From Psammoneis japonica (lineage: Eukaryota): a stretch of DNA of 64,000 bases. The notes beneath the pieces are model-generated. The model was given only the letters and a program-made list of their open reading frames with translations. It had not been told where the DNA came from and searched no databases. The position numbers were made by a program, and so were the translations under genes. Positions 14,754 through 59,629 of this stretch are shown here, one piece after another (position 1 is the stretch's first letter; every line of letters starts with the position of its first letter). The stretch lies in NCBI GenBank assembly GCA_008632985.1, contig QPGO01000032.1, forward strand, positions 59,330-123,329, read 5' to 3'.

Positions 14754-14827
14754 AACTTTGATCCTGAGGCTTCCTGCCAATCTGACTTTGAATCTGTCGC
14801 TGTTGACCCCTCAAGCAAACTGGGGAG

Positions 14828-15072: not shown

Positions 15073-15229
15073 TCCCATTTGTGACAGCTTTTGTCAAGCA
15101 ACAATGACACCAGTCAATCACATGATTAACATTGCGATCTACAGTGTAAAAGATAAAATGAAATGGAAGTGTGATGGATGATGTTGAGCAGAAAACTGGT
15201 GCATTGATTGTCGCACTTGTTCTTTTGTC

Positions 15230-19874: not shown

Positions 19875-22800
19875 TCATGCATCTGCACTCTTCGTTGGTG
19901 CATTTTGTGTGTGCATGTGAGCACTGCATTTCTGTGACCAAATCCTTTCCTTCTTACCCTTTGAGCAAGAATTGGACATTTGTGGGGTCGGCAGTTGTGG
20001 TGTTGGGGAAACAGGTGGCGGAGGGAGCGCGCGGAGCGCGCCGGGAGAGGGAGAGAAAAAGGGTTGGCCAAGGGTGCGGACGGACGGTCGGGAGGAGGAG
20101 TTGGTGACGGAGGGATGGCGGAGGAGGAAAGCTTGACATGCAGAGAGATGGTTGGAGAGAGCAAAGCCAAAGTCAAGGCTGAGGGTTTGGGAAGCCCAAA
20201 GTGGGGGTGTGGCAGCATGGCAGGAGGAGCCGAAGTGGGCGGGGGAAAGTTGTTTCCAGGCCGCGTTAGATTGGGTGAGGAGGTTGGAAGGAGCTAAAAG
20301 GGAGTTGGTGAAGGCAGAGAAGGATGCTTGAGAGTTAGAGAAAGAGGATGGATGGGACCAGGGCGGTTTGGGGGGGAGGGGGGGGACGGAGGAGGAGGCA
20401 GTGGTGGAGGCGCCAAAAAAGAAAAGATGGAAGTGGTGTCCGATGCCTCCTGGGTGATCGAAGGCAAAAGGGAGGAGGAAGAGGCCTGCTTGGTTGATGG
20501 TGTTGATGATGTCAGAACCGTGGGCGGAGGATGTAGAGCGGCCGAGGAGCTTGTCCCGAGTGCTGCTGAGGTGAGCCTTGTCAAGTGGGTTTTCAGGGAT
20601 GGGCAAACCAGGTGCAGGAGGCGGGGGAGCGGGCGGCACGGTGATGTCAATTGCTGTGGGTTGATGGGTGGATGGGGCGTCTGGTGGTGTGGAGCCGGGG
20701 GTGAGTTGGACGCCAACGTCGGTGGGGTGTTTTAGAGGGTGGTCGGGTGGGAGTCCGGCAGGGTCAACGTAGACTTGTTGGCGGGATCGGCAGAGGCCGC
20801 ATGGAGGACCAAGGGTCTTGATGATTGCACAGACCGTGTCGCGGATGTGGTTGGACAGGGGGCCTTTGTGCATTTTGGAGCAAGCAAAGGCGTGATCGCC
20901 GTGTGGGTCGGGGCGGGCGTGACCGCATGGGCAGTTGTGTTGGGAGAGGTTGGGTGGGATGATGGGGAGACGGAGCTTGCGCAAGAGGAGGATCGTGAAA
21001 AGATGGGGCGGAAGGCGATTGGAGGGTGGGATGCGGGACAGGGAGTGAAGGCATGGGCTTGTGAGTTGCGACAGCAGGGATGGGAGTGTCGGTTGGATGG
21101 AAGGATCGGCGAGGATTAAGGGGAGGGTGTGGTGTGTGTGATGGTGCAGGTGGAGACGCTGTGAGAGACCGCGCAGGTTGTGGTGTTCGACAGCATGCGA
21201 AAGGGAGGTAAAAGAGGGGGAGTCGAGCTTGAGAAGGGTGGGAGCACAGTGGCGGAAGATTTGGTAGAGGGAGAGGGTGGAGCGGGGGTTGGACCATGAA
21301 CCGAGAGCGGAAGAGCGGCTTGAGGGAAGGTGGAAGATGGCGCCACCGGCCAGTGGGATGCCATGTTTGGTGCAGCGGATGGAGCGGAGGAGGGAGGTGA
21401 TGAGGGCAGGGATGGCGACGGCGGAGATGTCGCGACATCCAATGCCGCCCAAAGAGACGGGCAGGGTGGCAATGAGTTTGGAGGCAGATGGAAGGGGGTC
21501 TGTGCATTGGGTGAGGCAGGTGAGGAACCGCAGGGAGTGGCCAATGATTTTGTCGATGAAGGGGGATGCCCACTGAAAAGGAGGTGGAAAGTCGTCGGAG
21601 GGTAAAAGGTTGTAGTGTGCGTCCGCAGATGGCAGGTGGGTGATGGAAGGGAGTGAGCACTTGCGGAAGAGGGTGCTCTGTGTTTGTTTGTCGGTGAGCC
21701 GGACGGTGAGGCGATGAAGGTTGGTGGCGAAGGAAATGGCCTTGTTGCGGAGGAAATCGAGGGCGAAAGCGGGTGAGCCGATGGGCCGACCGAGGAAGCG
21801 AGTGCCGGTGGTGATTTCGGGTGTGATGTGGGGATCGTTGTGAGGGTTGAGGAAGGCTAGGGCCTCGGACAGTGCAGCAGCGTCGGAGGGTGGAAGGCGG
21901 TTGATGGGAGAGGAGCCGGTGATGGAGGTGAGAATTTGGGTCTTGGAGGGGTTGAGCTTGATGCCGAATTGGGGACCGGAGGTAGAAAGGCGCTTGAGGA
22001 ACCAGGGGAGCTGGGAGAAGGGAAGGAAGATGTGGGTGTCATCGACATGAGAAGAGGCAGCGGACTTGGAGCGGGGAGGGAGTCGACGATGTAGGTCATC
22101 ATTGATGGGTTGGAATGCACGAGCCAAAACAAGGCAGGAGAAGGCAGGGCTGAGGGGGCAGCCTTGAGCAAATCCTTCGGGCTGAGAGAAGGAGGACCAT
22201 TGTAAGCGGTGGTCACGGTACCAGCAAGTGTTGGGGTTTTGGCAGAGCAGGTCGAAGAAAGGGATGAGGGGGTGGCATTCGTCAGAGTTGTCGAGGGTGT
22301 CGCGACAAGCATCACGGGAGCATTCGTTGAAACAATTTGATGAGTCGAGGAGGAGGAGGGCCTTGGTTGGAGTGGAGTCTGGGTCAAAGAATCGCTCAAT
22401 GTTGGCATGGGTGGTGTCGACTAGGTGGTCGAGACCGCCTTTGACGCCGACTCCGAATTGGCCGGAGTGGAGGAGGTTGGCAGCGAAGGTGGCGGCAAAG
22501 AGGAACATGATGAGGGTGCCGACGATTCTGCGAAGGGCAGTTCCGACGCCGATGGGGCAAAGTTTGGAAAGGTTGGAGGAGTCTTTGTGGAGAGCGAGGA
22601 AGCAGTTGGAAGAAAAGGTGGGCTTGATGGATGCAGGGATGTCTGCTGCAAGAATGAGGTCGAGCAGATGTTTGAAGGTGAGTGGGCAGGGGTGTGAGGT
22701 GGAGGTTGGGGTGGAGCGGTGGTGGAGGGCGCAGGCCTTGAACAGGTTGGTGGAATCGGCAAAGGCGCCGGGAGCTTTGCCTGGTTTACATTTGGTGAGG

Positions 22801-23885
22801 GCTTTGCGGAGGTCGTCAGTGGTGAAGTGCAGGGGGGAGGAGGTAGAGCGGTGGTGTCTGGCGGATGGGGGGGAAGGAAGCGGTGGGTGTTTGCGGGGCG
22901 GGCAGAGTTGCTTGACAAGCTCCATGCGTTCGGGGGTGAGAGAGGCGACGGGGAGGGAGGAGGCAGCCCGGGCGCAGGCGGTGTGGAGGTTGTTGATGTT
23001 GTTGGCGGCAACTTGGGCGGAGTGGGTGTGGGATGTGTTGTCAAAGTCGGGAGATTCGTCGGATGTGTCGGGAGCAGGGATCGAATGGGATTGGTCGTAG
23101 AGGGCGCGGATGGAACCGTTGCGGAAGAGGAAGAGACGTTGAGTGATGGTGGTGGAAAGGGGGATGTTGGAGTGCTTGGGTCGAGGGTAGAGGATGAGGG
23201 ATTCAAAGAGGAAGAGGAGCTTGAAAAAAGGGTCGGAGGCGGTTTGCCAAGGAGGGGGTGGGTCGTCGTCGGTGTCGAAGGGCTCAGAGGAGTCGACAGT
23301 CCATTGGACGAGATGATGGAGGGTGAGGAGGACTTGGAGGCGGGAGGAAGGGGGGAGTTTGTGCCAGAGGGAGGCGCGGAAGGGTGGGGGCGACAGGGGT
23401 GGCGAGTGGAGCCATTGAAGGGAGGTTGTCCAAGCAGTGAGCTCTTGACGTGGGCAGGAGGATGCAATGAGCTGAATGTTGGTAGTTGTGCAGGGGTGAA
23501 AATGGATGTTAGAAATGTGGGTGTGTGAATGTGCATCACGGAGGCATGTCTTGGTGGTTCGTTGGCAATGACGGCATGGATGTAGGTTGTGGAGCTCGAA
23601 GAAGGAGTCGGGGATGGTTTGAAGGCTGCGGTGCTTGTGTGTGGTAGAGAGATGTGTGCGCAAGAGCTTGGGTAATTGAAGCGGAGGAGCATTGGGCGGG
23701 AGGGAGAAGGAGCAGCCCTCAAAGGGGCAGGAGCAGTTGGCAACCCCCAGCGGGGTACGGGTGCCGATGGGTTCCATTGCTGGAGGGTGGGGCGGAGCGT
23801 GTTGGGGTCTTGATTGGCATTGGTGGCCTGTTGGGAGAGTGTGGACCACTCGGCGAGGTGTGTTGGAGCAAAGGTGTGGACCCAT
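19875..23885 (-). pseudogene. CRE-type reverse transcriptase / RLE polyprotein with catalytic YVDD changed to HVDD
   Basis: C2H2-like fingers (CPFEGC...HLSTTH); RT motifs PIGVGTALRR, QFGVG, LDSSNCFNECSR, GFAQGCPLSP, HVDD (22038-22049), GIKLNPSKT, FLGRPIG, LPVSLGGIG; CPCG...DPHGDHAFAC knuckle; PTDV...AIDITV endonuclease-like motif. Confidence 0.9.
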
Positions 23886-24452
23886 TGGTCAAAGACGTCG
23901 AGAAGCTCGAGGTCGCGTTGAGAGCAGTCGAAGTCCATGTCGGACGGGTCGGGGTGCGGTGCATGTTCCGCAGGCGGGGGTGGGGTGTTGTGTGCCAAGG
24001 CGGGAGTGTTGGTGGCGGGGGTGTCGGGATCCATGGTGGCAGTGTCGGAGGAGCACGTGGAGCCGTCGAGGTCGGGAGGGTGTGAGCGCTTCTTGCGGTG
24101 TTGGGAGAGGGGTGTGGGGGTGCTGACGCGTGTCGTGGTGGGTGGGGATGGCAGTGTGGGTTGCCAGGAAGCTTCGAGGAAAGAGAGGGCTGTTTCGGAA
24201 AGGGTGTCTCGAGAAGGTTGGGAGGTGGCGTGGGCAAAGGATGTGGATGTTTGGGCAGGAGAGGGAGGCGGCCGTCGGGAAGGGAGGTCCTTGAGGAGGT
24301 GTCTGGGGATGTTGGGGCAGAGGTGAAGGGTGGCGTCGGTGACATCCACGATGAACGGGGTGGCGAAAAAAAGGAGCTTGTGTCGGATGGGGGTGTCACT
24401 GTGGGAGAAAAAAATGGGGATGACACCAAAAAGGTTGGGGGTGGTGAGAAGC

Positions 24453-26540
24453 TCATCGTAGTCTAGTTGGAGGGCATGGAAATGTTGAGTCGGCTCGTGA
24501 TGATGATGAAGCTGTCGGCTTGGCGTTTGTTGATGGCTTGCAGGCGTGTGGCGATGGGGAGGATGTCAGGGGAAGAAGGGAAGGGCACTGCCGAAAGAGA
24601 AAGGCCGAGGACATGCATGATCGGAGGCGGTGAGTTGGGAGGGTTGACAACAGATGGAAGAGAGGTCCATGTCTCAGGCGTAGAAGTGGTGAGGAAGTGG
24701 ACGTCAGACTGAGGGGTCTTGGCGGTTTGGGCGGAGAAACTTGGGAAACGAGAGGGGCGGACGCCGACGTGATCGAGGAAGGTGCTGTGTTCAGAGAAGA
24801 GAGAAAGGGTGGGGTCTGAGGGGTTGGCAGGTGAGAGAGATTTGACGTGAGCGTGCAGTTGTTGGAGGAGAAATTCGCAGGTGCGTCGAGATTGACCGCA
24901 GGTTTTGGGGTTGATGCCGGCAAGAATGCCGCGGGCTTGTTCGGTGAAGGAGTTGCAAGCAGGGATGAGGAAGGCAGCGCAGCAAGTCCAGGGGTTGGGA
25001 GATGCGGGGGTGTCTTTGGCATCCGAAGGAAGGAAGTCGGGAGAGGCAGAGGAGGCGGAGTGGTGCTTGAATTGTGTGGGAACAAAGCAAAGGACTTGGT
25101 CACGGAAAGGGAGGAACTCAAAGGTGTCATGGGAGGGAATGGGAACAAAAGTGAGCTTGAAGCAGGAGGCCCATTGATTGTGATGGGGGCGGGAGCGGCG
25201 CTTGGTTTCGGAGAAGGCAATGTCAGCAATGTCGAAGAGAAGACTGGGTTCGCGTGTGGCGTGTGTTCGGAGGGTGGTTTGGACGATAGAGCGGATGCTG
25301 TCAACGTGATGGCGGGTTCGGGCTTGTCGGCAGGGTCGGATGGGTGTGGGAATTGGAGAAGGAGCTTGGTGGTGGTCGGGGGTGGTGTGGGATTGACGGG
25401 GTCAGTGGAGGCATCGGGTTGTGTGTTGGTGTCAGAAGGATCAGGAGGTGCAGCGGCGGGAGGGGGGGCAGCGGCAGTGGTGGAAATGGAAGAGGAGTCA
25501 AGGGACGGAGGATGGGAAGGGGAGGTTGCTGTGTGGACAGTTGGGGGTGGAGGCTGGGTTGGAGTTTTGGGCGGGGACGTGGGTGGAGGGTTGGGATCAC
25601 GTTGCGGGGAGGTGGGGGTCAGAAGCAAGGGTTGAGACATTTGGGAGGTTTGGGAGTCCTGGACACTTTCTTGGAGGGAGGGCCAGTTGGATTGGTCGTG
25701 GAGGGAGGACATGGCGGAACGTAGAAGGGAGCGAAAGGTGGAGTCGAAGTCGAAGGCGGGATCGGAGGTAGAGTCGGAGACTGGGGCGGGATTGGAGTCG
25801 GAGGCGTGGGCAGGAAGGTGCAGCGCAGGTTTGCCGTGGGGCGCAGGTGTGGCGTGTTCCAAGTCAAGAGTGGAGGCGGGGTTAGAGTCATCAGTGTGTT
25901 GCACAGATTTTCCGTGTGTCGCAGGAAAAGTGAGATGTTCAGGGTTGAAAATGGAGGCGGGAGCGGAGGTGGAGTCAGGGTCAGGGTCGTCGATGTTGAA
26001 GGCGAGAGTGGAAACAGAATCGTCAATGTGTTGCGTAGATTTCCCATGTGTCGCAGGAAAGTCGGGGTGTTTGAGGTTGAAGGCGAGAGCGGAAACGGGG
26101 CCAGAAGTGTCGGTGCATTGCGGAGATGTCTCGTGTGTCGCAGGAAAATCGGGGTGTTCAGGGTCGAAGGTGGAGGCGGCAGCAAGGTCAGAGGCAGAAG
26201 TGAGAAAAGGATGGAGGTTGTAGATGTAGCGCGCAGGCATTTTATGTGTCGAAAGGAAGTTGTTGTGTGTTGCAGGAGAGGAGAAGGGGTGAGCAGACGT
26301 GACGGGGAGGGCAGTTGGGGAGGACATGTGGTGTCGTGACTGAGGCGAAACTTGGTGATGGGGGGCCATTGAGGGTGTCAATGTGGAAGTTATGGGGGGC
26401 ACAAGGGAGGGCGGGAGAAGAGAGTGGGGAGACAAGGCAAGTGGTCGGAGCACGACTGATGGTGCGGGGGTGATCGGGAGGCTGTCAGGGGTGTCAGAAA
26501 GGGGTGATGGAATGTGATGGGGGGCCATTGAGGGTGTCAA
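24453..26540 (-). pseudogene. Pro/Ser/Thr-rich upstream ORF of the CRE element (probably frameshifted)
   Basis: 695-aa low-complexity ORF with three FPATH(G/E) repeats, same strand and upstream of the RT ORF. Confidence 0.5.
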
Positions 26541-26700
26541 AGATGGAAGTCATGGGGGGCATGAGGGAGGGCAGGAGAAGAGAGTGGGGAGACAAGGCAA
26601 GTGGTCGGAGCACGACTGATGGTGCGGGGGCAATCGGGAGGCTGTCAGGGGTGTCAGAAAGGGGTGATGGAATGGGGGTGTCAGAAAGGGGTGATGGAAT
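26355..26700. repeat. About 159-bp tandem duplication plus a short extra unit in the CRE 5' region
   Basis: Units start near 26355 and 26514 and are near-identical; differences include TA/CA, CA/TG, CG/CA and TG/CA. Confidence 0.9.
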
Positions 26701-27149
26701 GGGGCTGCAGTGCGATGGAGTGGGGCTGTGATGTTGCTTGTGGAGGGTCGGAAAGAGGAAGGATGGGAGGGAGGTGGTGGTGAAGGGGAGGGGAGGGGCA
26801 ACAGTGGGGAAGGGGATGTGGGAGCAGCGCACGGGTTGAGGACGATGAGGAAAATGGCGAAAACCGAAACGACGCGAGAGAGGCACCGCAGAGCGAAAGG
26901 CCCAAAGAGCGGTGGTGGGTCGGGAGGCCATTCCGGAAGGTGTAGCGAAGCGCTGCTTGACTGGGGAGTGAACCCCGTCGGCGTTGTCAACAAGGCTTTC
27001 ATGTCGACAGAATTTTTCGGCGACGTGCATGCATGCCGCAACGGTGGCGTTTCTAATGTCCAAAAAATTTGCGCGCGAAAATCTCCAACGGAAAACTCTG
27101 ACAAAAAAATCGCATGCATCTGCAACATTTTTTAGGCTATGCGTGTGCG

Positions 27150-27535
27150 CATGTTATGTATGAGCGCTTCATTTCTACGACTACATCCAGGCCCTGTAAT
27201 TTACCGACCGTCGATTATTTATGTACGGTATCTCGATTTCCTCCTGACATGCGTCAATAGACTATTTATTGATGAATACTACATACAACTTCCAATTTTA
27301 TCCTCCTACGTGCCCGTCGGTACACCTTTTCGTATGTAAGTGAGTACTACATTTCTACGATGAAAATCAATCACGAGTTCCTACTTCAACATGTGTCAAT
27401 CAACTATTCATTCATTATTATGTATCATTTTATCGTATCATAGCATTTCCAATATGGCATCAGTCTACTGCTCTAGTTGGTAGACTTTTGCGTATGTAAA
27501 AAATGAGACCTACATTTCTACGATGAAAAAATTCT
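27150..27535. repeat. Degenerate AT-rich tandem repeat, unit about 170 bp, TpA retained
   Basis: catttctacga anchors near 27170, 27350 and 27513; cgtatgtaa...tacatttctacgatgaaaa shared by the last two copies. Confidence 0.65.
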
Positions 27536-27648
27536 TTTTTTTCTGGATTGGCACAAGATTCTTCGCAGGTGGCAGAACAAGCAATAACAAGTCAACAAAA
27601 TCATTTCATAAAACGCTGTAGCTTCTCGCAGTTCACGTTCACCATACC

Positions 27649-29163
27649 ATGCGTATCACCTGTATCGCCCTGATCCTGTTATCCGGGGGCCTCGAGGTCT
27701 CCAATGCGTCCTGCGCCTCAAGTCCTCCTTCCAACGATGATGCGTGCAATGCCATTTCAATGACGTTAGGAGTCCCCGTGCCATTCAACAACACCTGCGC
27801 AACTAAACAAACGAACGAGATCTCTCCGGGAGCAGCAAACGTCGATAACCCCTTGCCTGTTTCCAATCCTATTGGTGGCAGCTGTGCCCAGCAGAATGGC
27901 TGGTGCTTCTTTGAAGCCGAAGTTCAGAATAGCGTGTGGTACACCTTTGAAGCTCCCGCCTCTGGTTGTGTTTCAATCGAGACGGATAATGTGGACACTA
28001 CGGACGACCTTCAGCTAGCTGTCTACGAAGTTGAAGATTGCAATGACTTTGTCACCTTCAAGAAAAGAGCTGCGAATGACGATAAAGCTGATAATAGAAT
28101 CGTTCTTTTGCCCAAGATTGATACGCTCGCGTGCTTGACACCCGGAACAACGTATTACGTTCAGCTCGACGGCTTTAATGGCGCTGGATTTTCTGCTAAC
28201 ATCATTACTACTGAATGTGGCTTGGATCCGCTCAGCATTGAGTTGGAAGGTGGTTGCCAGAATCGTCTCACTGAAACTGTGCTCGGTGTGGATCCGACCA
28301 CAAACTACCTCAAGGCCACGGTGACTGGAGGACTTGGTCTTCTTCAAGGATTTGCACCTATATGCACTTGGCGTGTGGAAAGTGGCGATTCAGGCTCAAT
28401 CGAATACACCGACGGATGTAACGCAGCAGTCGCGCCAAGCGTAACAACGACATACTGTGCCATGGCCACCGAATACACGGGCTGTTCCGTCGAAGAATGT
28501 ATCACGATCAATGCCCTTGACGCTGCTGCGATTGATTGTACTACAGGCAATGGTCAAACCAAGTACCTGGTCTGCCATGCACCTCCAGGAAATCCTACGA
28601 ACGTTCAAGAGATCTGCATTGGCGAACCGGCTGTCAATGACCACTTGACTAATCATCCTCAAGACAGCCTTGGTCCATGCACCTGTCGTGACACCAATCC
28701 CCCCTTTCCAGAGCCACCATCATGTGTGGATTTGAAGCTGACACTCATCATATGCGATCCTCAAAACCCTTTCGACTGCGACTTTGATATTATCGGATTG
28801 CATGGCTTTGAAGTTAGAGATTTGACCACAAACATCGTTCTTTTGTCAGAAACTCCAACTTCCAATTTCTGGAGCGATAACTCTCCGATTGGGCCTTGGG
28901 AGCAAACTTCCACCTGCGTGGACCCACGTAACTGCTACCGTTTTACCATTGACGATCAGCAGCAGCCTCCAAAAGGCATTGTGTCTGATACGGGTTATGT
29001 TGGTGGTTACTCTATTGAATTTGGTGGCACGACCACAACGAATACTTTCAACCCTCAGGTGTGGAGCACCCAGACCTTCTCAGTGGGTGGCTCGTGTTCC
29101 ACTCCTACCCGATCTCTTTTCAATCTGCGTGGAGAGGGCCAAGTCAATCACAACGACGAATAG
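27649..29163 (+). CDS. 504-aa secreted Cys-rich protein with bacterial-type extracellular modules
   Basis: Signal peptide MRITCIALILLSGG; PSNDDACNA, SVWYTFEAP, LAVY, AANDD, PGTTYYVQLDG module; KYLVCHAPPGNPTNVQEICIGEPAVNDHLTNHPQDSLGPC module. Intronless, normal Tyr content. Confidence 0.85.
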   Translation: MRITCIALILLSGGLEVSNASCASSPPSNDDACNAISMTLGVPVPFNNTCATKQTNEISPGAANVDNPLPVSNPIGGSCAQQNGWCFFEAEVQNSVWYTFEAPASGCVSIETDNVDTTDDLQLAVYEVEDCNDFVTFKKRAANDDKADNRIVLLPKIDTLACLTPGTTYYVQLDGFNGAGFSANIITTECGLDPLSIELEGGCQNRLTETVLGVDPTTNYLKATVTGGLGLLQGFAPICTWRVESGDSGSIEYTDGCNAAVAPSVTTTYCAMATEYTGCSVEECITINALDAAAIDCTTGNGQTKYLVCHAPPGNPTNVQEICIGEPAVNDHLTNHPQDSLGPCTCRDTNPPFPEPPSCVDLKLTLIICDPQNPFDCDFDIIGLHGFEVRDLTTNIVLLSETPTSNFWSDNSPIGPWEQTSTCVDPRNCYRFTIDDQQQPPKGIVSDTGYVGGYSIEFGGTTTTNTFNPQVWSTQTFSVGGSCSTPTRSLFNLRGEGQVNHNDE

Positions 29164-32100
29164 TTCTCGTCCGATCAAGTCAACATGCATTGTTGTTATC
29201 GAGTGTCTTCTATGTTTAAGATTTCACATCGCTTTCCCCTGTGAAAAACAGAAACATCAAGCGATGCCATTCACATCATTAGTTTCCAATTAAAAGCTTA
29301 AATTAAAAGCTTAAATCCCTGCTTTAGTCCAGAGGTTAGCTGTGCTTTTTCACGTTTTAACATTGCGGCATTACATAAAAATCAAAACGTTAAATTACTG
29401 CAAGTGATGGGTTCCACCAGCCAGCTAGGACAATGAGAGACCAACGCATACAATGTAGCTGCGCAGTCTCGTTTGATCATCGGGACAGCTGCACCTTTCA
29501 TCGAACCATCAAATCGTCCTGGTGGTCCCCGCACAAAAGACTGCACTGCATTTGGGCACAAGCAATGGGAGAGCCCATGGACATTTTGAATTGGCAAAGC
29601 CCAAACATGGGGCTGGTCTTGTTCATTTGATTTCTTGCTTTCTGATTTGTGAACAATGTCCATGAACGGTTGTGCCTGAGCCACCACTTGGACAGGGTGA
29701 CCCACAGCAATGATTCGGTTGAGTCCACAAAGCCCATTGGTTCTGAGAGTTCATGTGGCATCCAAACTGATGACAAGAAGAAGGAAGATGACAAGACAAG
29801 CTCCACAACTGCTGGGTTCCAGAAAAGAAAGTTTGACACACACATCATCATCACAAAGCACACACATGCTGTTTGAAAGCTGGTCATCCACTGCATCTTT
29901 TGTGAACATGGTTGCTCAAATGAGAGACTCATCAACCCCTTTTGAATGCAATGAAAAACTGAAAACATCTGCTCTCGACAGCTGTCAAGAACAAAGCAGT
30001 CACCAGTGTGCTCCATCAGCATTGTCTCACAAGTTGCACAAGTTAACAGCATTTTCTCATCATCATTTGCACTTTGCACCCACAGAGCTTGCCCAACCTC
30101 AAAGAATTCAAAGAGCTGGTGCATCTGGCACACAAAATCCATTTATGAGGGCACAACTTGCCACAGCACATTGTGGCTCTTGTTTTGCAGTGGCAGCAAC
30201 AAGGTGCTCCCAATGAACACCTCACAAGATTGTGTCGTTTTTCTGCTCTGCTTTTGCACAAAAAAATGTTGTGCTGACATGCTTGGCTCAATCTCTGAAA
30301 TGCTCTTCCCCAAAAACTCTCAACAAGGCTGGCCCCAGTGCTGCCCAGTTTCACATGGCCTTCATCTCTGCTGTCACTGCTGATGATTTTCATTGGCATT
30401 GTGGCATGCACCAATTGATGTCTTCAGCACTGTTGCACTTTAGAGCCCAAATCATGCTCAGCTCATTGACATGCTTGAGGTGTTTTTTGTTGCCATGCTC
30501 CACTTCATGCAGCTCCACCTTCATGATGCAAACTTGTGGTTGTCATGCTTGGATGCTGTGACACTTTCTCCATGACAGATTTGCTCAAGGCTCCTTTTGA
30601 GCTGAGACCTGCTCTCAAGTTGCGCTGCAATCCAGAGAGCAGTGGGCTTGCAAGTTGCATCTCCTTCCTCATTTTGTTGTAGAGCGGCAAACATGCAGGG
30701 GCTTGTCTTGTCTTGTCAAGGTGATCAATCAATCAACAAAGCCAAAAATTGCTGCTTTGACTCAAGTGTGATGTGCTGCATTGGATCCATTGAAACTGGG
30801 CAGACAACTCATGGATGAACTGTTGTGCATGTCAAGAGCAAAACCTTGGGGTCCAGGGACAATGTTTGAGCCCAACCTCTTGTGGCTGTTCTTGGGTGGT
30901 GCAAGATGTCCACACTTCTGCTGTCTCCAACAAGCCCAAAGATGAGCATTGTGGGTTTCCAGGACTGGCCTTCTTGAGGTCACATTGGAAGTGTTGTGGC
31001 AACGGAATGTGTGATTTGCAACACAATTCACAGACATTCCAACAATTGTCCCAAGTCAGTTGGCACCAATCACTCAGTTGTTTGGCTGTGTGTGCCATGT
31101 TTTTTGCATCCAAGCACTTGTCCAGGGGCCAAGCAATTTGTGTCCACCCACAATGTGCAAATGTGCATGAGCACCATCCAGTGCATTGCTGACAATGAGA
31201 CAACATCCATGGTGCGGACACTGCTCATCTCCCATTTCTTGTGCCAAGTGCCCCCGAACAGCCTGCCTCAAAACTTGAAAATTGGCACATTGTGTGTGGG
31301 AGTTTGTGGGTTGATGTCTTGACACTCATTTTCCTCACACACAACATTGGATGATCACTCACAACCATCTCAGGCAAAAAGCCAACTTCATCTCCACCAG
31401 CTGCAATGTTGCACATCGTTGGAGCATCATGCCGCCAGACCTGTCATCTGCATGACTTCATGCAAACCATTGCCAGTTGCCAGCACTGCTGTCACAGAAC
31501 CCATTCCAAGCATCTTCCATGTCTCAGAACTCCCAACTGGCAGAAAACCCATTTGTCTTGGCTGGTGAAAGGGGTCAGATCACAGCAATGGCAACACACA
31601 ATGGCTCAATTTCCAAAGTGCCGTTTTGACATCTTCATGAATTCCAGCCACTGGATCAGAAGAGGATGGAAACATTTGCCCATTTCAAAAAAATCCAACA
31701 AGAGACAATCACATTGTTTTGTTGAAAAAGTCTGACATGACTTGGCTTTCATTGAGCATGAGATGAGCTTCCCCAATCTGCTCCCCATTTCCCTGCTCTT
31801 CAAAATTGGGAGGTGGGAGAGTGGGAGAGTGCCCACATTGACAAAAGCTGGAAGCTTGGTGTTGCATGGCTCTTGTCTGCACTTTTGCTTGGGTCTCAAA
31901 TGAGAAGTGCCCAACCAAAGCACATGCCCTGCATCCACACAGTCAAGTGCACAAGGTGCAAGTTGGCCGCAGGGAATCCAAGTTTCTTGCCTCCTCAACT
32001 GTGTCCAGAATTGGCTGCTTCACAAAGAAAAAGAAGCATTTCCTTGAGCATTTGAGGAGGAGAGGTTCTTGTTCAGTGGCAGCAGCATCTGACAAGAGAA

Positions 32101-34558
32101 AAGAGGCAGCTCTTGAGCTGCATCATTGAACGCATGTTGTGGGTGACTCAACAACAAATGCTGAATGATGCTGATGCTGTTTGTTGCACAGGCCTGTCTC
32201 ACAAGAACTTGGAGCTGGGCATCAATTGACATGAGCATCAAATGGAAGTGTGCTGTCTTGGAATCTCAGTCCATTCAGTGGTCCACAGCTCACAAGATTG
32301 CCAGCAACACAGACATGACTGGTGGGTTGAAAAATTCAATTGCTGGTTGGTGCCAACAAACTTGGGCATTTCTGGTTCTGTTCATTGATGGTCACATGCA
32401 CACAATGGACACTGCCAGAAAAGAAATTTCAGGTGCACTGGTGATGCCAAACACTTGTTCCCTCCACTGGAAATCTCAACTGCTCTCCCCCCCAATGCCC
32501 CCAACAAATTGAGCAATGCCATGCTCATTCCCCCACCCACCCACCCACAACAATTGTGTGCAATGTCATGCTCATTTCTCCCCACAAGAAACAATTGTGG
32601 TGAACAATTTGCAAATTTGGAAGATGCAATCAAGCACCAGTGCGGCCTGCACTTCTTGGCAAAAACCTGGTGGACGATGATCCAAAACCAGCCATGTCTG
32701 CCCTCCCAATTAAATTTGCTGTGGACTGTCTGTGCCACATCACAATGGAATCAGCAAAGGAGCAGAGCTCCAAAGCACCAAGCACTCTCATGTGCTCCCA
32801 CATGATTGACTCACTGTGCTGCCACCCCAAATTAACCACAGCAGTCCACAAGGACATGATGTGCAAGGTGAAGAGTGCAGCAGCCAAGAGAAAGGCCAAA
32901 CTGCACAAGGACACCCCCTCAAATCTGTCCTCCTCAATCCACTGGATGTGCAAGCCACCCACGCAACCAAGTGCAGCACCAGAACTGGTGTCTGGTTGTC
33001 AGCATGCCCATTGGCATTGAACAGGGCTGAACTCTTGTGTCATGAGTTCTGACACACTCTCTTTTGCTGTGGCAAAGAGCCCCCAGACCTGCTCAAGGCT
33101 TGTGATGGATGCAGCTGTAAATTCTCTGTTCAGCGTGCCCTTCAGTGCAAGAAGAGTGGCATGGTCATTTCAAGTGTATGATCCCTTGGTCATTTCCAGA
33201 CATGACAAAACACTGGACACTGGATGAGCTCAGCTGTCTGTTGTCTCTCACTCTTGAGCCCTCTGCAGCATGCTGCAAACCCTCAGTCAATCCTGTTTGC
33301 ACCTCTGGCAGCGCAAGCACCAGCAGTCAATCTGTCAGCCCACAGTCACAACCACCAATGTCAACAAGTCAAAAGATGGTGACCAAGGAGACATTCCAGC
33401 CCAAGGATTCTACAAACAAATGACAGACAGCACTGTGATGGACATGAAGGTTTCCAGCACTGATGCAGCATCCTGTCTGTGCCCATTGTGGTTTCGTGTG
33501 ATGGCTCAGTGGGAAAGGAGGCTCAAGCTGTCCTTTGACTGATCACCTCCAAAATTTCTGACAAGTGGAAAAAGCCATGCTCAGAAGTTTGTGGAGGTTT
33601 GGCATTGCCATTGTGAGAGCAACTCACTGTTGCATCACATCCAACACACCACATCCACAAGGACAAGCCAAGCCCAACTGACATCATGTGCAAACATCAA
33701 CCAACCCACACCAAGCACTGGCAACATCCCAAACCTGCCATGATGCAAATGCCAAGCACAAAAATGACTCAAATTCCATGTGCAGCTGCTCTTTTCAAAT
33801 TTGCACATGCAAGCCCCAACTCTCTGTGTTCATCAGGGTTTTCAAATCACAGAATTTCATGTCACAATCAGCTCACAATGAAACATTTTATTGTGAAGAA
33901 AAAGTGAGCATGTTTCATAAAAAGAAGCAATTGCACTCATTCTGCAATCGCGCTGCAATCACATTGCAACAAGCCCCCCCGTGCTGGGGCACCCTCCATG
34001 CAGGAGCACCCTCTGCCCATGAGAAAGGCCCATGGCAGGTGAAGGAAAACAGAGCCCACTGCACAATCTGGGCAAATTTTTGGCATCAATTTGGACACTG
34101 GAAACATGCACAAAAAACTGGCAGTGTCTTCACTCATGCTGCAGCTCTTTCTTTGCCATCATCACCTCATCCCAAGATGCGGTTGTGGCAAGGAGAGGCA
34201 AAACAAGGTTGTGCAGCAATTGCTTCTTTCTGTCTCTCTTGTTTCTCTTTCCTTCCTTGAGAGATGCAATGTGGAAAAGAGGTGCAGGTGTGATGTGGTG
34301 TCCAAAACAGAGCTGCGGTGGTGCCCAAAAAAATTGCTGTGCGGTGCACATGGCACACATGGTGCAAGATTCCACACCCCAAATTCTTGCATTTGGCTCT
34401 CAAAAGAGTTCACAGGATGATTGCAAATGATTGCCATTGCATTTGCAACAATGGCACTTGTAATCAGATTGACCCAGCATGGCAAACGTCAACTGCAATC
34501 ATCATTTTTGAGATCTGGTGATCGGCAACCAATGTTGTGGTCATTCCACGCAGTTTAA

Positions 34559-35041
34559 CCCTTCAACCACCGGACTTGAGAGCAAATTTCCACAGGTGGA
34601 GATTTGCTTGCTCTTGTCACAAATGCATTAAATGAAACATTGCCAGACATGGGGCAATGAAGAATTCATGCCATTTTGTTTTGGAGCACACATTTGCAGC
34701 CGAAAACTCTTGTGGGCCATTGCTGCAATTTAGAAAGTTCAATGTCAACTTTTAACACCGGTTTTTTTTGCATGCCCCATGCATGGAACTAAATCTCAAT
34801 TTTTAACAATGACATTTATGATGGGTTGTTGTCACAACAATGGAGCACCAGATGCCACACCCTTCTTGAAGCAAATCTCCACCAATGGAGATTTGCTTGC
34901 AACAAGCAAATGCATGTGGCACATTTTATGCAGATTGCACATGATGCAACATTTTTGTGCCACGTCCATTGCATTGTTGTGCAAATGCATGACACATCAC
35001 AACTCAACAAGTGGAGCAATTGCTCCATGGTGGTTGAAGGA
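34559..35041. mobile_element. Non-autonomous piggyBac-like MITE (about 483 bp)
   Basis: TTAA (34555-34558) + CCCTTCAACCACC ... GGTGGTTGAAGGA + TTGA (35042-35045). The right TTAA duplication appears as TTGA. Confidence 0.75.
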
Positions 35042-35105
35042 TTGAGAGCACTGTTTTGGAGTGCACATTTGCCAAAAGCCATGCTGGGGACCATTCTTTG
35101 AAATT

Positions 35106-37708
35106 CGACCTGCTGGCATTGGTGCAGCCCTGCCCCACATCCTTGGGGCCCTTGTGATGTTCCTCCTTGCAGCTGCTTTTGCAGCCAACCTCCTTTCCTC
35201 TGGCCAATTTGGCGTTGGCATCAAAGGCGGTCTCAACTGCCTTGTTGACACCACATGTGCCAACATCAAGCAATTTTTCAACCCAGACACCACCCCCACC
35301 AAGGCTTTGGTCCTGCCAGACCTCACCAATTTCTTCAACAAATGCTCTCAAGATGCAGGACATCTTGGCTGCTGCCTCCAATGGCTGTTGACCAACTCTT
35401 CTCTTGTTTGACCTTCTTTCCCAACATCCCAACACATGCTGGTGTCATGACCACCACTTCCAATGGGCTTCTTTCCTTCAGCCCAATGGCTTTGCTCAAG
35501 GCTGCCCTTCAAGCCCTGCACTTTCCAGCCTTGTCTTGACCCGTGTGCTCCAACCCATCAATGATGGCCCATTCCACTGGCTCCCAGCCCACTCCAAAGC
35601 CGCCACCTCTTCCCACATCAATGGTGTGCATGTTTTCCTGCCTTGCCCTGAAATTCCCTGGTTCCTCCGCCGTCTCTCCATGCAAAAGCCCCCCCCCCCC
35701 TTTGCACAAAACCCAACCTTTCTAAAACTAAGATCTTCACATCCATCACTGGTGCCTCCCCAATTGACCACCTCTCCCCTGCAAATGCTGCAGCTCTTGC
35801 AGAAGTCCTTGCCTTCCTCAACCCAACCAACAACCCAAACGTCCAGCTCAAAATTGCTGCTGGTGTCTGTTTTTGGGCCAGCCCATTGGCTCTGCCACCT
35901 TTGCCCAGATTTCCTTGTCAACAGAGCTGCAACCTTTGCCACAAGCCTCTGCTGTTTCTCGCCAACCGCCTTGCTGACAAGCAGACACAAAGCACCGTCT
36001 TTCACAAGTGCTCCATCCCTTCTGTCACACATCTTTTAGCAGCCAATGCCTGCTGCAACCTTGTGCAACATGACACCCTCCTGGATCCCTTCCAATGGGC
36101 CTCTCACCCTTTGCCAATGCCATCATTGGTCACTCCCTGCACATCCTTGCTTGTCTCACCCAATGCACCACCCCACTCCCCCTTCTGCCTCCAAACTCAT
36201 TGCCAGCCTGCCCATTGCCCTTGGCAGCATTGGTTGCCAGGACATCTCTGATGCCACTGTCCCCACCCTCACAACTTCTCTTGCCCAACCCACATGCTGC
36301 ACCAAACATGGCATGCGCTCATTGGCAGCAACCTGTTCCACCTCTGACAGAGCCACTCTCCCACTCTGGGCTCCTGGTCCAGCCCATGATCCACCCTCTC
36401 CCTCTGCCATGTCTTCACCACTGCATGCCCACCCTCTTCCATTTTGACTCTCCTTCCTTCACATCACTCTGAGATGCAATCAAGCATCACAAACTGCATG
36501 GCCTTGTGCAATGCCTCTCTGCCACCACAGGAGCAGCACCCTTCCTCAGATCCTGGCCAACCCCTCCATCCAACCCACTCTCCCTTCCCTGCTTTCTCTG
36601 CTCACAAGTCCATGTCTTCACTCCCTCTCTCAAGCACATGCCTCAAACTGACTCCCATCCACCCTGTTCATGCTCCTCCTCCTTGACGAGTTGCGACTCC
36701 CTGCTGTCCCTTTGGACCTGCTCCAACACGACTGCTCATGTGACCACACCCGCCCAGATCCATGTGGAGACCATGCTTTTGCATGCCCCAAGATGCACAA
36801 AAGCCCACTGTCTGACCACATCTGCAACATGATTCACACTGTCATCTAAACTCTGGGCCCCCTCTGTAGCCTGTGCTGCTCTTGCCAGTGAGTCCACCTC
36901 GACCCTGCCAGCCTCCTTGCTGACCACCCCTTGAAAACCCTGCTGACATGGGCCCTCAACTCACTCCCAGCTCCACACCACCAAATGCCCCATCAACCCA
37001 TCAATTTGCAGCTGTTGATGTCACCACACTGCCAGCCCCCCCACCTCCTGCACCCAGTTTGCCTGCCCCAGAAAACCGCTCACCTCAGCAGTGTGCAAGA
37101 CAAGCTCCTTGGTCAAACTGTGCCATCTGCCTGCTGCTCTGATGTTGTTGATGCCATCAACCAAACTGGCCTCTTCCTCCTCCTTTTCACCTTTGATCAT
37201 CTTGGTGGCATTGGATGTCACTTCCATGGTTTTTTCTTTGGCACCTCCACCTCAACATCCTCCTCCATCCCACCTTTCCCTCCAAAACCACCCTGGACTG
37301 AGCCATCCTCCCTCTCCAATTCTGCAGCATCCTTCTTCACCTTCAAAACCTCCCTTCTTGCACCATCAAACCTCTTTGCTCACTCCAACACCACCGGGAA
37401 ACAAATTTCGCTGGACCGCTTTGGCACCTCCTGCCATGCTGCCACTCCCCATCTCTGGGCCTCCCAAATCCTCAGTCTCAACTGTGGCATGGCCCTCTCC
37501 TCCACCCACCTTTCTGCCTGTCAAACCCTTCTTCTCTGCCACCCAACCATCACCAACAACTCCCTTCACCAACCATCTGTCCTCACTTTGGACCCATCTT
37601 TCTTTTCTCCATTGCCAAGCGCACTTCATGCACCTGCTCCACCACCGGCTCTCCCCGACCACTCTCTTCTGATGCCACAGCACCCCAAATGCCCACAAAC
37701 AACACACC
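35106..37708 (+). mobile_element. 5'-truncated second copy of the CRE-family element, inserted in a second MITE copy
   Basis: Translates to SGQFGVGIKGGLNCLVDTTCANIKQFFNPDTTPTKAL, GFAQGCPSSPA, ASKLIASLPIALGSIGC and AHLSSVQDKLLG, colinear with the 19875-23885 protein; many frameshifts. Confidence 0.9.
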
Positions 37709-37976
37709 AAAGTTCAGTGTTGACTTTCAACACTGGGTTTTTTGCATGCTCAATCCATGGACAGAAAGGGTCCAAATCTCAACCTTTGACAATGAAGTTT
37801 GTGATGAGTTGCCATCACAATGGAGCAGCAAATGCAACACCCTTTGACCAAATCTCCACCGGTGGAGAGATTGTGCATGATGTGACATTTTCACACTGTG
37901 TTCATTGCATTGCCACACAAATGCATGATGTGCCACAGTTTCTCAAGTGGAGCAAATCTCTGTGGTGGCTGAAGGG
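37709..37976. mobile_element. Right part of a second piggyBac-like MITE copy
   Basis: Homologous to 34734-35041 and ends GGTGGCTGAAGGG + TTGA (37977-37980). Confidence 0.7.
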
Positions 37977-39459
37977 TTGAAAATTTGACAAGCCAACAGG
38001 ATTTGCATGCAGAGTTTCACAAGACATTTTTAACCACGACCGGTCAAACTCATTTGGCATGTCCCCACAGTCCTCCAGGAGGTGCTTTGGGAACAACAGA
38101 GAGCATCCCTGTGGCATCATGTGGCTCAACACCATCAGCTTTTGCTGTGGCTGGCAAAAAAAAAGTGGCAACAACCAGCCAACAGCAGTCAGGCCAGTGT
38201 GCGAACTCACCAATGCATCATCTGAAAAGAAGACAGGGCCTGGTGGTCCCATGGGCACAGCCACATGTTGGGCCATTGCTCTTTTCAAGATCACACCATG
38301 AGTGTGAGCATCAGCCCATTTTCCACAGTGAGAGCAAATGATGAGAGACAGGAGTTGCTGAGAGTGGTGCATTTGTTGCTGAAGTGAGTGCCACTCTTTG
38401 TTGACCCTGTCTCCCACGTCCTGACCCTTCAAGCAGCAACCAGCAGCCAGGAATTCATGTTGTCCATATCGTGTTGGGTGAGTTGTCAAACCAAATCAAA
38501 TGACAACCACCCCAAATGTCAGCCAAAAACCACATCTTCACTGCTGTTTGGCCTTGTCAAGGGAGGGCACAAAAAATGCAGGAAAGCATGCAGCAATGTG
38601 CTCAAAACATTGAATCAGCAAGAATGAGAGAAACATTCAATGGCACTCCATTGGTGGTGGACAAGATCAAAAATCAAGACTCAAGACTCACGGCTGTTAC
38701 AAAACTTGTTGACGAGTGCCATTCAAAGCGCGAGGAGCCAAAAACAAAGCCTTGGTCACACGAAGAGGTCTGTGTGGATGACACGTCGGGTGATGATGTG
38801 TCGAATGGAGAAGATTGAATGACACCATCTTTCAATCAGGCGGTGCCAGACAACATCAAGATCTTGTGCATTGGATTGATGGGCCTCTCCATTCGATTCT
38901 CTTACTGTAGCGTGTGTTAAAACCCTTTGGAGTTACTCCAATTGCACCGGGATACCCGCTGCAGTCCAGTCTATGTAGTCGCGTGAAAAAGTGAAGAATG
39001 GTGGCTGAGCTTTATCTAACTCTACTCTTTCGCTCTTGCTCGATTCACACGTTCCTACTGATTCGTGACACCTTCTCTTCTTCCTGACCGGAGGAACCAA
39101 AGGTTGTCTCCTACTTTGCACTTCCTTATAGTGCGGGACTAGTATAACATTGATTTTGGGGAACCCCGAGGATCATTGATTGTTCATTGTTCTTGCATCA
39201 AATCTACCGTAGCCTCCTCACGGAACAGTGTTGTTTTGGTATAATGTTCCGAAACGATTCATTCGTTACTGTCCAATCGAACAAGCGTTTCATGGAAGGG
39301 CGATATTTTTGCCGGGCAAGGTTTGCACCATCATGACATTGGGTGCGCCACCTTGTGTCCCAACAGGACTATCATCTACCCGATTCATTTTCAATCCAAG
39401 CATCATTCGATTCTTCTTCTCCTTCTTCTTCGTTTGCACCATTCTTTGGTTCCATGGTA

Positions 39460-41560: not shown

Positions 41561-43407
41561 TTAGAAATCAGCGTTTCCCGGATATCTTGGGAATGCAATC
41601 GCATCGCGAATGTTCTCGATTCCGCATACATAAGTTACCAAGCGTTCAAAACCGAGACCATACCCCGCATGTGGAACAGAGCCGTATCGCCTCAGATCCA
41701 AATACCACCAATAGTCTTCCGGGTCCAAATCTTGCTCAGCCAATTTTGCCTCCAACACATCCAAGCGTTCCTCCTAATGTGGTGATTAACAAAGGAAAAC
41801 GATTAGGGCAAAACATAAAAGGACCAAAAACGCACAGGGAGCATCACTTACTCTTTGACTGCCTCCGACCAACTCTCCAACACCTGGCACGAGGAGATCC
41901 ATGGCATTCACTGTCTCCCCGCCATCCTCATCATTGTCGCGCATGTAAAAGGCCTTGATGCTCTTAGGATAGTTGTACACAAAGACGGCGCTGTCGAACT
42001 TTGTTTCGGCCAACCACCGCTCGTGCTCAGTTGCCAGGTCTGTACCAAACTCCACTTCGGGAAACTGCCACTTGGATGGATCCTTGGCAATTTCCTCTTG
42101 AAGGAATCCAATCGCATCACGATACGACACACGTGCAAACGGTTGAGCCACCAGCTTTTCCAATCGTTTCTTGAGATTCTTATCGTAGAACTTTTGGAAG
42201 AACGTCAAGTCCGAGTCACACGTGTCAAGAACATGCGACACAACCGATTTGAGCATGGCTTCGGCATTGTCCATGGCAGAGTCCAAGTCTGCAAAGGCCA
42301 TTTCTGGTTCCACCATGTGAAACTCGGCCAAGTGACGCGTTGTTTGAGAGTTTTCGGCACGAAAGGTGGGTCCAAAGGTGTAGACATCCCCCAGGGCACA
42401 AGCGTGTGTCTCGGCACCCAATTGACCGCTCACCGTCAAATACGCTGGCTTGCCAAAGAAATCTTTTGAATAGTCCACCGCATCTGTGGGACCTTCTTTT
42501 TTGTTTTCTTTGTTTGCATCCGCACGCGGCAATTCCGAGATATTGTCAAGATCCAACGTTGTTACACGAAACAGTTCGCCCGCTCCCTCACAATCACTCG
42601 CTGTAATGAGAGGCGTTTGAACATAGACAAAGCCAGACTGTTGGAAAAACGAATGAACCGCACCCGCCAAGGCCGACCTGACCCTCGCCACGGCTGCTAC
42701 AGTATTCGTACGAGGCCTCAAGTGTGCCAAGGTACGAAGGTATTCCAAAGAATGGCGCTTTTTGGCCAGAGGGTATGTTTCTCCCGGACACTCGCCTACA
42801 ATTTTGAGAGAGGAAGCCGCCAACTCGACCGCCTGTTTGCCACCCTGAGATTTGACCAGAGGTCCCGTCACAACAACGGCGCAGCCAGTTGTCAATCTGT
42901 TGATTTCTATACAAGATAAAGAAACATAGTGTTAGTAAAGAAGAATTAGCCACCCATACATGCTTGTCTGAATTGCTTACCGTTTTTCGACGCTTCGTCA
43001 ATATCGTCAAAGCCCAAAACGCACTGGATACCCGAAAGGTTTGATCCATCGTTGACCTCGACGAACGCCAACGTCTTTTGCTTTCGAACGGTACGGACCC
43101 ACCCCTTTACAACAACTGGATGATCTGTTGGTTTTGTGGCTTGAGCAGCCTTGATTCGCGGCACAATGGATGGCGTTTCCGTTTTGGAAGAGGTCGTTTT
43201 TGACTCATCTGTATCGGTCGACATGGACAAGAGAGAAACTTGTTGTTGTCTCTTGGAAATGGAAGAAACAGAAAAAGCGGACGCACATTGAATCATACTA
43301 CGGCTGTTGGAACGACGCATGGTGGCACACAGCGCAGCCACAACACAGGTGCGAGCCATGATGGAGCCGAACGATCTTGACGACTTATTTTTTCGAACTT
43401 TCAACAT
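41561..43407 (-). CDS. asnS: Organellar asparaginyl-tRNA synthetase, 3 exons (43407 or 43359-42981, 42906-41852, 41773-41561)
   Basis: [74 protein letters not shown] introns 42980-42907 (TACTAAC branch point) and 41851-41774 restore the frame. N-terminal ASAF motif. Confidence 0.96.
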
Positions 43408-59586: not shown

Positions 59587-59629
59587 CGCAAACAAGGCAG
59601 CAGCAAAGGGAAGCGAGGATTCGCCTGCG

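Follow-up and report, generated by a model that had tools for sequence, protein, structure and literature searches.

Introduction

The closest described counterpart of the mutation reported here, a loss of the dinucleotide TpA from retrotransposons of the diatom Psammoneis japonica, is a hypermutation confined to TpA that strikes viral DNA integrated into the genome of Bigelowiella natans (Mettrop et al., bioRxiv 10.64898/2026.01.13.699255). That preprint has the only direct measurement that we found, and the signature seen here matches it: 210 of the 211 mutations recovered by mutation-accumulation lines in a hypermutable region of nucleocytoplasmic large DNA virus (NCLDV) origin were A>G or T>C, all of them at TpA. 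Rates given there for the same region are 6.85e-7 for AT>GC and 3.9e-9 for GC>AT, and its authors propose an ADAT2-like adenine deaminase (bioRxiv 10.64898/2026.01.13.699255). We analysed 64,000 nucleotides of P. japonica contig QPGO01000032.1 (assembly GCA_008632985.1, positions 59,330 to 123,329 of the forward strand), hereafter the window, and in it two copies of one family of retrotransposons without long terminal repeats (LTRs), called copy 1 and copy 2. All coordinates are positions in the window.

A second relevant system is repeat-induced point mutation (RIP) of Neurospora and other ascomycetes, which converts CpA to TpA, raising TpA and creating stop codons. The diatom window resembles RIP in that a repeat-directed, dinucleotide-specific transition hypermutation inactivates transposons within sharply bounded tracts. 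The direction is opposite, however: in the window we found no RIP signature of raised TpA and newly created stops, TpA being removed instead, and simulation of its removal yielded 0 stops (see below).

The third system is decay of methylated CpG. Diatom transposons are CpG-methylated (DNMT5a), according to a published account (PMC9998398). Such decay, converting CG to TG or CA symmetrically on both strands, accounts for copy 2 and for the older tracts of the window, but leaves the loss of TpA unexplained, and in copy 1 it lags far behind that loss.

The diatom case resembles B. natans in that A:T>G:C change occurs only at TpA, giving TpG or CpA according to strand, and GC>AT change is not elevated to the same degree. 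A:T>G:C change at TpA, both of its products, and clustered repeat tracts with host genes spared were all found here. The two differ in host, a stramenopile rather than a chlorarachniophyte; in targets, here retrotransposons and other repeats; in the kind of evidence, a historical footprint rather than measured rates; and in depth, the ratio of observed to expected TpA (o/e) being 0.00-0.17 in the diatom window against 0.45 in the B. natans NCLDV region. The words 'CpG' and 'diatom' are absent from the preprint text, and the relation of TpA loss to CpG decay is not treated there. In the literature searched, mostly listings and abstracts, we found no paper describing TpA loss in diatom repeats.

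What is new here is a site-polarised contrast between TpA and CpG, a family baseline from environmental DNA, the impossibility of closing a reading frame by this mutation, the same state in environmental relatives, and a rough order of rates. Together the data make it probable that two separate mutation processes of different speed act on silent repeat DNA, and that copy 1 is a young element caught after the fast process and near the start of the slow one.

Copy 1 has lost TpA and copy 2 has lost both TpA and CpG

The elements compared are:

19975-27135, minus strand: copy 1, a full-length non-LTR retrotransposon, TpA o/e 0.14, CpG o/e 0.90
19875-23888, minus strand: main open frame of copy 1, 1337 codons from stop to stop
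35149-37659, plus strand: copy 2, a 5'-truncated and frameshifted relative of copy 1, TpA o/e 0.04, CpG o/e 0.16

We placed the 5' edge of copy 1 at a rise in TA per 200 bp (26800-27400) and its 3' edge at the end of homology with copy 2. Copy 1 contains 42 TA where 298 are expected and 402 CG where 446 are expected; in copy 2 the corresponding counts are 5 against 129 and 23 against 148. Homology of copy 2 to copy 1 is limited to the 3' 2.5 kb of the latter (window 22516-20002), where the two are 68.8% identical. Their alignment contains 18 gap runs, nine per row; 13 of the runs are not divisible by three in length, and two are terminal. Read in the frame of copy 1, copy 2 contains seven stops. 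These results bear out a preliminary description made from the sequence, according to which copy 1 is poor in TpA, rich in CpG and carries a long open frame while copy 2 has lost both dinucleotides and its frame.

The same description had pointed to His/Cys pairs and CpG-type replacements between the copies, and both were recovered. Ten His/Cys pairs were found, nine of which have the His on the copy 1 side and the Cys on the copy 2 side, including the quoted strings GGLDHLVDTTHANIERF (copy 1) versus GGLNCLVDTTCANIKQF (copy 2). His and Cys can both be reached by single transitions only from Tyr (TAY) or Arg (CGY). At five of the ten columns concerned, the commonest residues of the relatives include Tyr or Phe, and Arg was not among the top three at any of the ten. 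Replacements from copy 1 to copy 2 included R>H (13), D>N (12), R>Q (9), R>C (7) and E>K (4), and CG in copy 1 stood opposite CA at 57 sites and TG at 52 sites in copy 2.

Altogether 866 of 2666 aligned bases differ: 257 within the TA/CA/TG/CG family, 305 other transitions and 304 transversions. With 304 transversions (11%), the copies are distant members of one family, neither sisters nor a before-and-after pair. Since copy 2 is older in every respect, the pair is insufficient by itself as evidence for an order of loss, a use to which the preliminary description had put it.

Conserved tyrosine codons were replaced and arginine codons were kept in copy 1

A protein search returned 28 relatives, the best of them 37-43% identical to copy 1. 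As the Tyr test set we took the 15 columns in which Tyr is the relatives' plurality residue. Copy 1 has Cys (TGC) at seven of these, His (CAY) at three, Tyr at two, Phe at two and Pro at one, so that 10 of 12 informative Tyr codons have gone to the one-step TpA products Cys or His. Among the lost columns is the Y/F/I position preceding the invariant DD of the reverse transcriptase: relatives read Y/F/I-x-DD in this box and copy 1 reads HVDD. The Arg test set comprised conserved Arg columns that were CGN in the lineage of copy 1; 15 of 17 are kept, and the two lost read TGC and CAC. Equal fractional loss of TpA and CpG in copy 1 was thereby checked and fails, with 10/12 Tyr codons lost against 2/17 Arg codons (Fisher p=0.0003). 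In copy 2 all five informative Tyr columns are lost together with 12 of 14 CGN-Arg columns, and ten of those 12 have become Gln, His, Cys, Trp or stop.

TpA is depleted in every codon phase of copy 1. The phase that encodes Tyr holds 6 TpA against 65.9 expected, and the other two hold 10 against 48.1 and 12 against 49.7; in unmutated relatives TpA o/e is 0.26-0.9 in each phase. Depletion in all phases, strongest in the Tyr phase, argues against selection having shaped the loss and against the protein having been selected for function meanwhile.

Discordant products are themselves skewed. Sites at which one copy reads CA and the other TG (CA/TG doubles) number 62 between copy 1 and copy 2, with CA in copy 1 and TG in copy 2 at 47 and the reverse at 15. 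The 47:15 and 9:1 skews, together with the 7 Cys to 3 His in copy 1, fit an A>G bias on the sense strand in both copies, stronger in copy 2. We also considered the CpGs surviving in copy 2 as a test set for copy 1 (8 CG against 8 CA/TG) and rejected it as too small and confounded by the 11% transversions.

The TpA loss of copy 1 lies outside the family range and recurs in environmental relatives

A family baseline was obtained from 50 loci found by a scan of metagenome contigs. The 43 loci of at least 1 kb have a median TpA o/e of 0.58 and a median CpG o/e of 0.85; without one outlier, L013, the remaining 42 have a mean TpA o/e of 0.59 (standard deviation 0.09). The open reading frame (ORF) of copy 1, at 0.17, lies 4.6 standard deviations below these 42 relatives, and its CpG o/e of 0.84-0.90 is close to the family median. 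Tyr makes up 0.4% of the copy 1 protein and 1.5-3.8% of relatives P0002-P0027.

These values bear on the explanation that no mutation occurred and that the TA poverty of copy 1 is an intrinsic composition or reflects avoidance of UpA at the RNA level. The family is indeed odd. In all relatives the sense strand is rich in C (0.23-0.46) and poor in G (0.11-0.28), and TpA o/e is below 1; the gene islands of the window, at 0.5-0.74, also have a TpA o/e below 1. The skew of copy 1 itself (sense strand 46% C, 13.5% G) is therefore a family trait and not a footprint of mutation. The distance of copy 1 from its family, the replacement of conserved Tyr by exactly the two one-step products, the involvement of non-coding LTRs and of both strands (below), and the one-way direction of change between two environmental relatives nevertheless make an explanation without mutation very improbable.

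Three environmental relatives are in the state of copy 1, with TpA and CpG o/e of 0.06 and 1.01 (L013), 0.03 and 0.88 (L037) and 0.24 and 0.94 (L035). L013 keeps a 706-codon frame open that contains no Tyr at all. We compared it with L010, a relative of normal TA content to which it is 74.6% identical. At the 147 TA sites of L010, L013 has CA at 56, TG at 49, CG at 4, TA at 6 and other dinucleotides at 32. Change from TA to CA or TG was thus seen at 105 sites against 1 in reverse, and exchange at CpG was balanced (58 against 53). Judged from their composition, the same mutation appears to operate in the organisms of unrelated marine or aquatic metagenomes from which L013, L035 and L037 come. 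The phase pattern of the L010/L013 differences was set aside as a sign of selection, as the pair lacks an outgroup. Regeneration of CpG by double hits (TA to CG) was likewise rejected as the source of the CpG in copy 1, both because only the 4 of 147 sites in L013 show it and because copy 1 has its CGN codons at family-conserved Arg positions.

Among the protein relatives, P0009-P0011, P0014, P0016, P0019 and P0020 (on ENA contigs of 19 kb to 1.6 Mb) have Tyr of 1.5-1.9% and His of 5.7-7.3%, low and high respectively compared with the other relatives. Such values may mark them as copies, in other assembled genomes, that have been mutated in part.

TpA-poor tracts with sharp edges span a wide range of CpG

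Scanning the window in 64 steps of 1 kb revealed two kinds of DNA, gene islands and TpA-poor tracts. Those first needed here are:

1-7 kb, 27-29 kb, 39-43.5 kb and 47-50.5 kb: gene islands, TpA o/e about 0.35-0.74, CpG o/e about 0.85-1.2, from the 1-kb scan
27200-29300: gene island at the 5' end of copy 1, of normal composition (TpA 0.55-0.74, CpG 0.9-1.2)
29600-38500: old tract containing copy 2, TpA o/e 0.00-0.12 and CpG 0.05-0.20 throughout, with sharp edges

TpA-depleted tracts occupy 45 of the 64 one-kilobase windows, with TpA o/e of 0.00-0.23 and CpG o/e anywhere from 0.05 to 0.96: at least 0.8 in nine, intermediate in 24 and below 0.3 in 12. The 19 TpA-normal windows divide into 18, 1 and 0 for the same classes, and a window with CpG lost and TpA kept was found in none of the 64. 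Tract edges are sharp, within 200-400 bp: successive counts of TA per 200 bp are 1, 8 and 20 across 26800-27400, and 14, 3 and 0 across 29200-29800. Host genes are spared, the islands with asparaginyl-tRNA synthetase (AsnRS), YTH/CCCH and LRR genes keeping the TpA of 0.35-0.74 against the 0.00-0.23 of the tracts. Because other tracts are equally poor in TA, that poverty is not peculiar to copy 1; its peculiarity is intact CpG. Older tracts have a TpA o/e of 0.02-0.07 and a CpG o/e of 0.11-0.34.

Repeat pairs within the window record TpA loss ahead of CpG loss

An LTR retrotransposon in the window provides a clock of its own:

7847-15072, plus strand: Copia-type LTR retrotransposon, with RVT_2 in the frame at 12486-14753; TpA o/e 0.14, CpG o/e 0.58
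7847-8091 and 14828-15072: its LTRs, 245 bp with TG...CA ends
7842-7846 and 15073-15077: target-site duplication TCCCA

The target-site duplication on both sides implies that the two LTRs were identical at insertion. They now differ at 32 bases without gaps, 22 of these lying in 11 CA/TG doubles and one in a CA/TA single, and the rest being 4 CG/(CA or TG) differences and 5 transversions; 6 CG/CG and 3 TA/TA sites are kept. By hand arithmetic, loss of TpA after insertion was about 77-87% per LTR (87% if same-direction doubles, which are unseen, were equally frequent, with 77% as the lower bound), and loss of CpG about 20%. We give a range as a simple model of independent sites misfitted the counts (3 TA/TA, 1 single, 11 doubles), which points to heterogeneity among sites. 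At 20% CpG loss only about 0.2 CA/TG doubles derived from CpG are expected in the pair (hand arithmetic), so the LTR doubles are derived from TA. Copy 1 and the Copia element thus share a TpA o/e of 0.14, with CpG at 0.90 versus 0.58.

Two further repeats carry the same mark:

26355-26674, minus strand: 161-bp tandem duplication within copy 1, from window alignment
58635-59592: tandem repeat of units of about 280 bp, 82-89% identical

The units of the duplication within copy 1 differ by 2 CA/TG doubles, one TA/TG, one CG/TG, one A/T and one indel. The longer tandem repeat shows 20 CA/TG doubles, 6 CpG-type and 9 other differences, with 30 CG/CG kept. CA/TG doubles were present in every repeat pair examined in the window. 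The Tyr/Arg contrast, the Copia LTRs, the 64-window scan and L013 together uphold the earlier proposal that loss of TpA outpaces loss of CpG and needs a cause of its own. As a rough order of rates, TpA loss is much the fastest, followed by CpG loss and then by other changes.

The mutation creates no stop codons

The frame of copy 1 and its coding regions comprise:

21915-22364, minus strand (residues 509-658): reverse transcriptase domain, Pfam RVT_1, E 3.7e-7
20550-20933, minus strand: C-terminal Cys/His motif and conserved D/K region, from conserved alignment columns, by eye
23889-27131, minus strand: upstream Pro/Ser/Thr-rich part, in frame with the main ORF and interrupted only by TGA stops, at 26552, 24455, 24398 and 23891

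Changes of TA to CA or TG can only destroy TAA and TAG or turn TAA into TGA, and so create no stop. When we simulated 80% TpA mutation of the ORFs of three intact relatives, 0 stops appeared in 200 runs each, whereas 80% CpG decay of the same ORFs produced 3.7-10.4. The 2419-codon frame of copy 1 (27131-19875) contains five stops, all TGA. As TpA changes create no stop, the long open frame of copy 1 is no sign of function. Its main ORF contains 6 Tyr (0.4%), 3.1% Cys and 6.3% His. Copy 1 retains 73 of 79 family-conserved columns, and copy 2 retains 51 of 76; with most conserved tyrosines lost, the copy 1 protein is probably dead.

The RVT_1 domain, together with weak matches of the reverse transcriptase profile to PDB domains of LINE-1 ORF2 and R2 (E about 1e-5), identifies copy 1 as a non-LTR retrotransposon. 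The R2/CRE/NeSL group consists of non-LTR retrotransposons carrying a restriction-like endonuclease. Copy 1 resembles this group in its single large ORF, an N-terminal Cys/His motif (read by eye), a central reverse transcriptase, and C-terminal Cys/His followed by D/K residues, the conserved ones being C986, C988, H999, C1003, K1008, D1057, D1081 and K1113. Neither a family model nor a structure matched the C-terminal region at 20550-20933, and no Pfam match was found in the upstream part at 23889-27131. From residue conservation, the C-terminal region is a putative restriction-like endonuclease region, and copy 1 is probably of the endonuclease type common to R2, CRE and NeSL.

Comparison with other genomic copies and weighing of the alternatives

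One public DNA run (X1, as contigs) contains 71% of the 31-mers sampled from copy 1; 29% are absent, and no RNA run with copy 1 was among those listed. X1 has 1079 contig pieces at least 80% like copy 1. Summed depth, not taken as copy number, increases about thirty-fold along copy 1 (5' end about 55-300, 3' end 1600-3300), the pattern expected of many 5'-truncated copies. The run also bears on an artefact of assembly or base calling at a modified TA motif. Beyond the absent 31-mers, which give it no direct support, such an artefact finds nothing in its favour: X1 contigs carry pieces of copy 1 of 315-411 bases with 0-3 differences, and L013, L035 and L037 are in the same state in unrelated environmental assemblies. 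We regard it as the least probable explanation of all.

Copy 1 was compared with the other genomic copies at the best 40 of 911 variable places, chosen by support. Among these 40, TG or CA in copy 1 faces CG in the others at no fewer than 11 sites (5 TG, 6 CA), and CG in copy 1 faces CA at 2. TA in copy 1 faces CA or TG at 3 sites; CA/TG doubles account for 5 sites, transversions for 5 and other transitions for 7. Copy 1 is young by transversions, and its CpG decay has just begun, at about 5% of roughly 200 CpGs in the stretch compared.

Several results weigh against a fast TpA process acting in place and separately from CpG decay. Among the depleted one-kilobase windows, CpG o/e and TpA o/e are correlated (Spearman 0.48, p=0.0009), and the spatial independence of the two losses is thus incomplete. 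In principle, a CA/TG double may derive from CpG as well as from TpA. The L010/L013 pair was used without an outgroup, and its sites in phase 3|1 gave 19 CA against 1 TG, a skew that is probably ordinary synonymous divergence. At the best 40 of 911 places, TA in the others faces CA or TG in copy 1 at 2 sites only, and at 20268, where copy 1 has TA, TG makes up 91% of the depth over 17 contigs. That TG is common there hints that some mutated states are inherited. Judged from those 40 places, the TpA loss of copy 1 may be either private or inherited.

The correlation would also be expected of a single repeat-directed mutator that removes both dinucleotides, CpG less efficiently or later. CpG loss is restricted to TpA-depleted tracts and affects 0 of the 19 TpA-normal windows; TG and CA are the products of both losses. 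Yet TpA at its floor with CpG untouched recurs, in copy 1, L013, L037, L035 and the window at 57001-58000. CpG loss scales with age measured by transversions, from about 5-12% in copy 1 through about 20% in the Copia LTRs to 84-86% in copy 2, whereas both young elements have the same TpA o/e. The chemistries are opposite, A:T>G:C for one loss and G:C>A:T for the other, and the CpG methylation of diatom transposons reported in PMC9998398 is an ordinary candidate cause of CpG decay in the same silent tracts. A single mutator is improbable on this evidence.

A stronger competitor is inheritance, in which earlier rounds of this mutation had left a master element poor in TA that went on transposing without stops. 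The TpA mutator would exist in this case too, but copy 1 would be a young insertion of that template and would record no order of loss. The family is abundant and has been active recently, as the 1079 pieces indicate; sites at which a high share of others have TA are few, the two just given; the TG at 20268 is widespread; and copy 1 and copy 2 share the same product at three Tyr columns (C/C, C/C, H/H). A selected template is hard to square with a Tyr phase that is the most depleted of the three and with the replacement of ten of 12 conserved Tyr, including the one in the x-DD box. Independent hits have also occurred repeatedly, as seen from the CA/TG doubles against other genomic copies (5), between tandem units and against copy 2 (62), and other copies that were mutated independently would give the same look at the best 40 of 911 places. 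We consider inheritance unlikely, but it is the alternative to which we give most weight.

Proposed mechanism and implications

In the reading that we prefer, two processes of different speed, the fast one would change A:T to G:C specifically at TpA, the product being TpG or CpA according to which strand carried the struck adenine. TpA is its own reverse complement, so that one activity on A after T, on either strand, yields both products. In the youngest elements TpA would already stand at the floor of this process (o/e about 0.14). The slow one would be ordinary decay of presumably methylated CpG to TpG or CpA, taking far longer to finish. Copy 1 would be a young full-length element, hit in place, that has passed through the fast process and stands near the start of the slow one; copy 2 would be an old, distant, 5'-truncated member in a tract where both are complete. 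CpG loss would be due to 5-methylcytosine.

The one-way direction of the TpA change, its products on both strands and its sharp tract edges form a signature from which we infer a dedicated activity, as the preliminary description had suggested. The agent would be an enzyme, the simplest candidate being an adenine deaminase with a preference for A preceded by T. The A34 on which tRNA adenosine deaminases act stands beside a near-invariant U33, a context that by analogy would fit a preference for T-A. In the tracts (7001-64000), surviving TAs relative to gene islands were 3.3-fold for TTAA, 1.9 for CTAA, about 0.25 for ATAC/ATAG and 0.06 for ATAT. The mutator may thus prefer TAT and avoid TAA, although the islands may not represent the ancestral composition of the repeats.

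A broader statement, on which we are nearly undecided with a slight lean towards doubt, would be that diatoms have a TpA-directed A-to-G DNA mutator that strikes new repeats almost at once (in the time that CpG decay takes to reach about 5-12% and other change a few tenths of a percent). It would act on both strands and independently of cytosine methylation, preferring TAT most and TTAA least, and, creating no stops, would leave long Tyr-free 'ghost' frames, also visible in marine metagenomes.

If the order of rates holds, the first mark that new repeat DNA receives in diatoms would be a rapid erasure of TpA, distinct from cytosine methylation, and the TpA/CpG pair could serve as a two-hand clock for dating insertions. 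In practice, activity should not be read from a long transposon ORF, whether in such genomes or in marine metagenomes, and Tyr-free, Cys/His-rich proteins are likely to be mutated relics. Together with B. natans, occurrence in a second lineage of the SAR group (stramenopiles, alveolates and Rhizaria) would point to A-to-G genome defence as common among algae, and would direct enzyme searches to deaminases that read A after T.

Other features of the window

A direct repeat of about 160 bp brackets copy 2, its members being 74% identical:

34734-34891, plus strand: left member
37709-37868, plus strand: right member, beginning directly past the 3' end of copy 2

It could be a repeated target, as for site-specific R2/CRE-type elements, or part of a larger composite repeat.

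Three regions of the TpA-depleted, CpG-intermediate tract contain long open frames, 50762-53371 (869 codons), 54312-58003 (529+287+428 codons) and 59537-63028 (1163 codons). No Pfam match to these frames was found; they are possibly further 'ghost' frames held open by stop-free mutation.

One gene of the normal-composition islands was identified as:

41786-42931: AsnRS gene

Its product is 80-89% identical to proteins of Helicotheca, Nitzschia, Eucampia, Amphora, Epithemia, Stephanocyclus, Cylindrotheca, Skeletonema and others, which marks the window as diatom DNA. A search with a neighbouring ORF of 513 amino acids gave bacterial leads only, all below 0.9. A second gene, at 47975-49693 in an island of normal composition, unites CCCH zinc fingers, a YTH domain and a DCD (development and cell death) domain.

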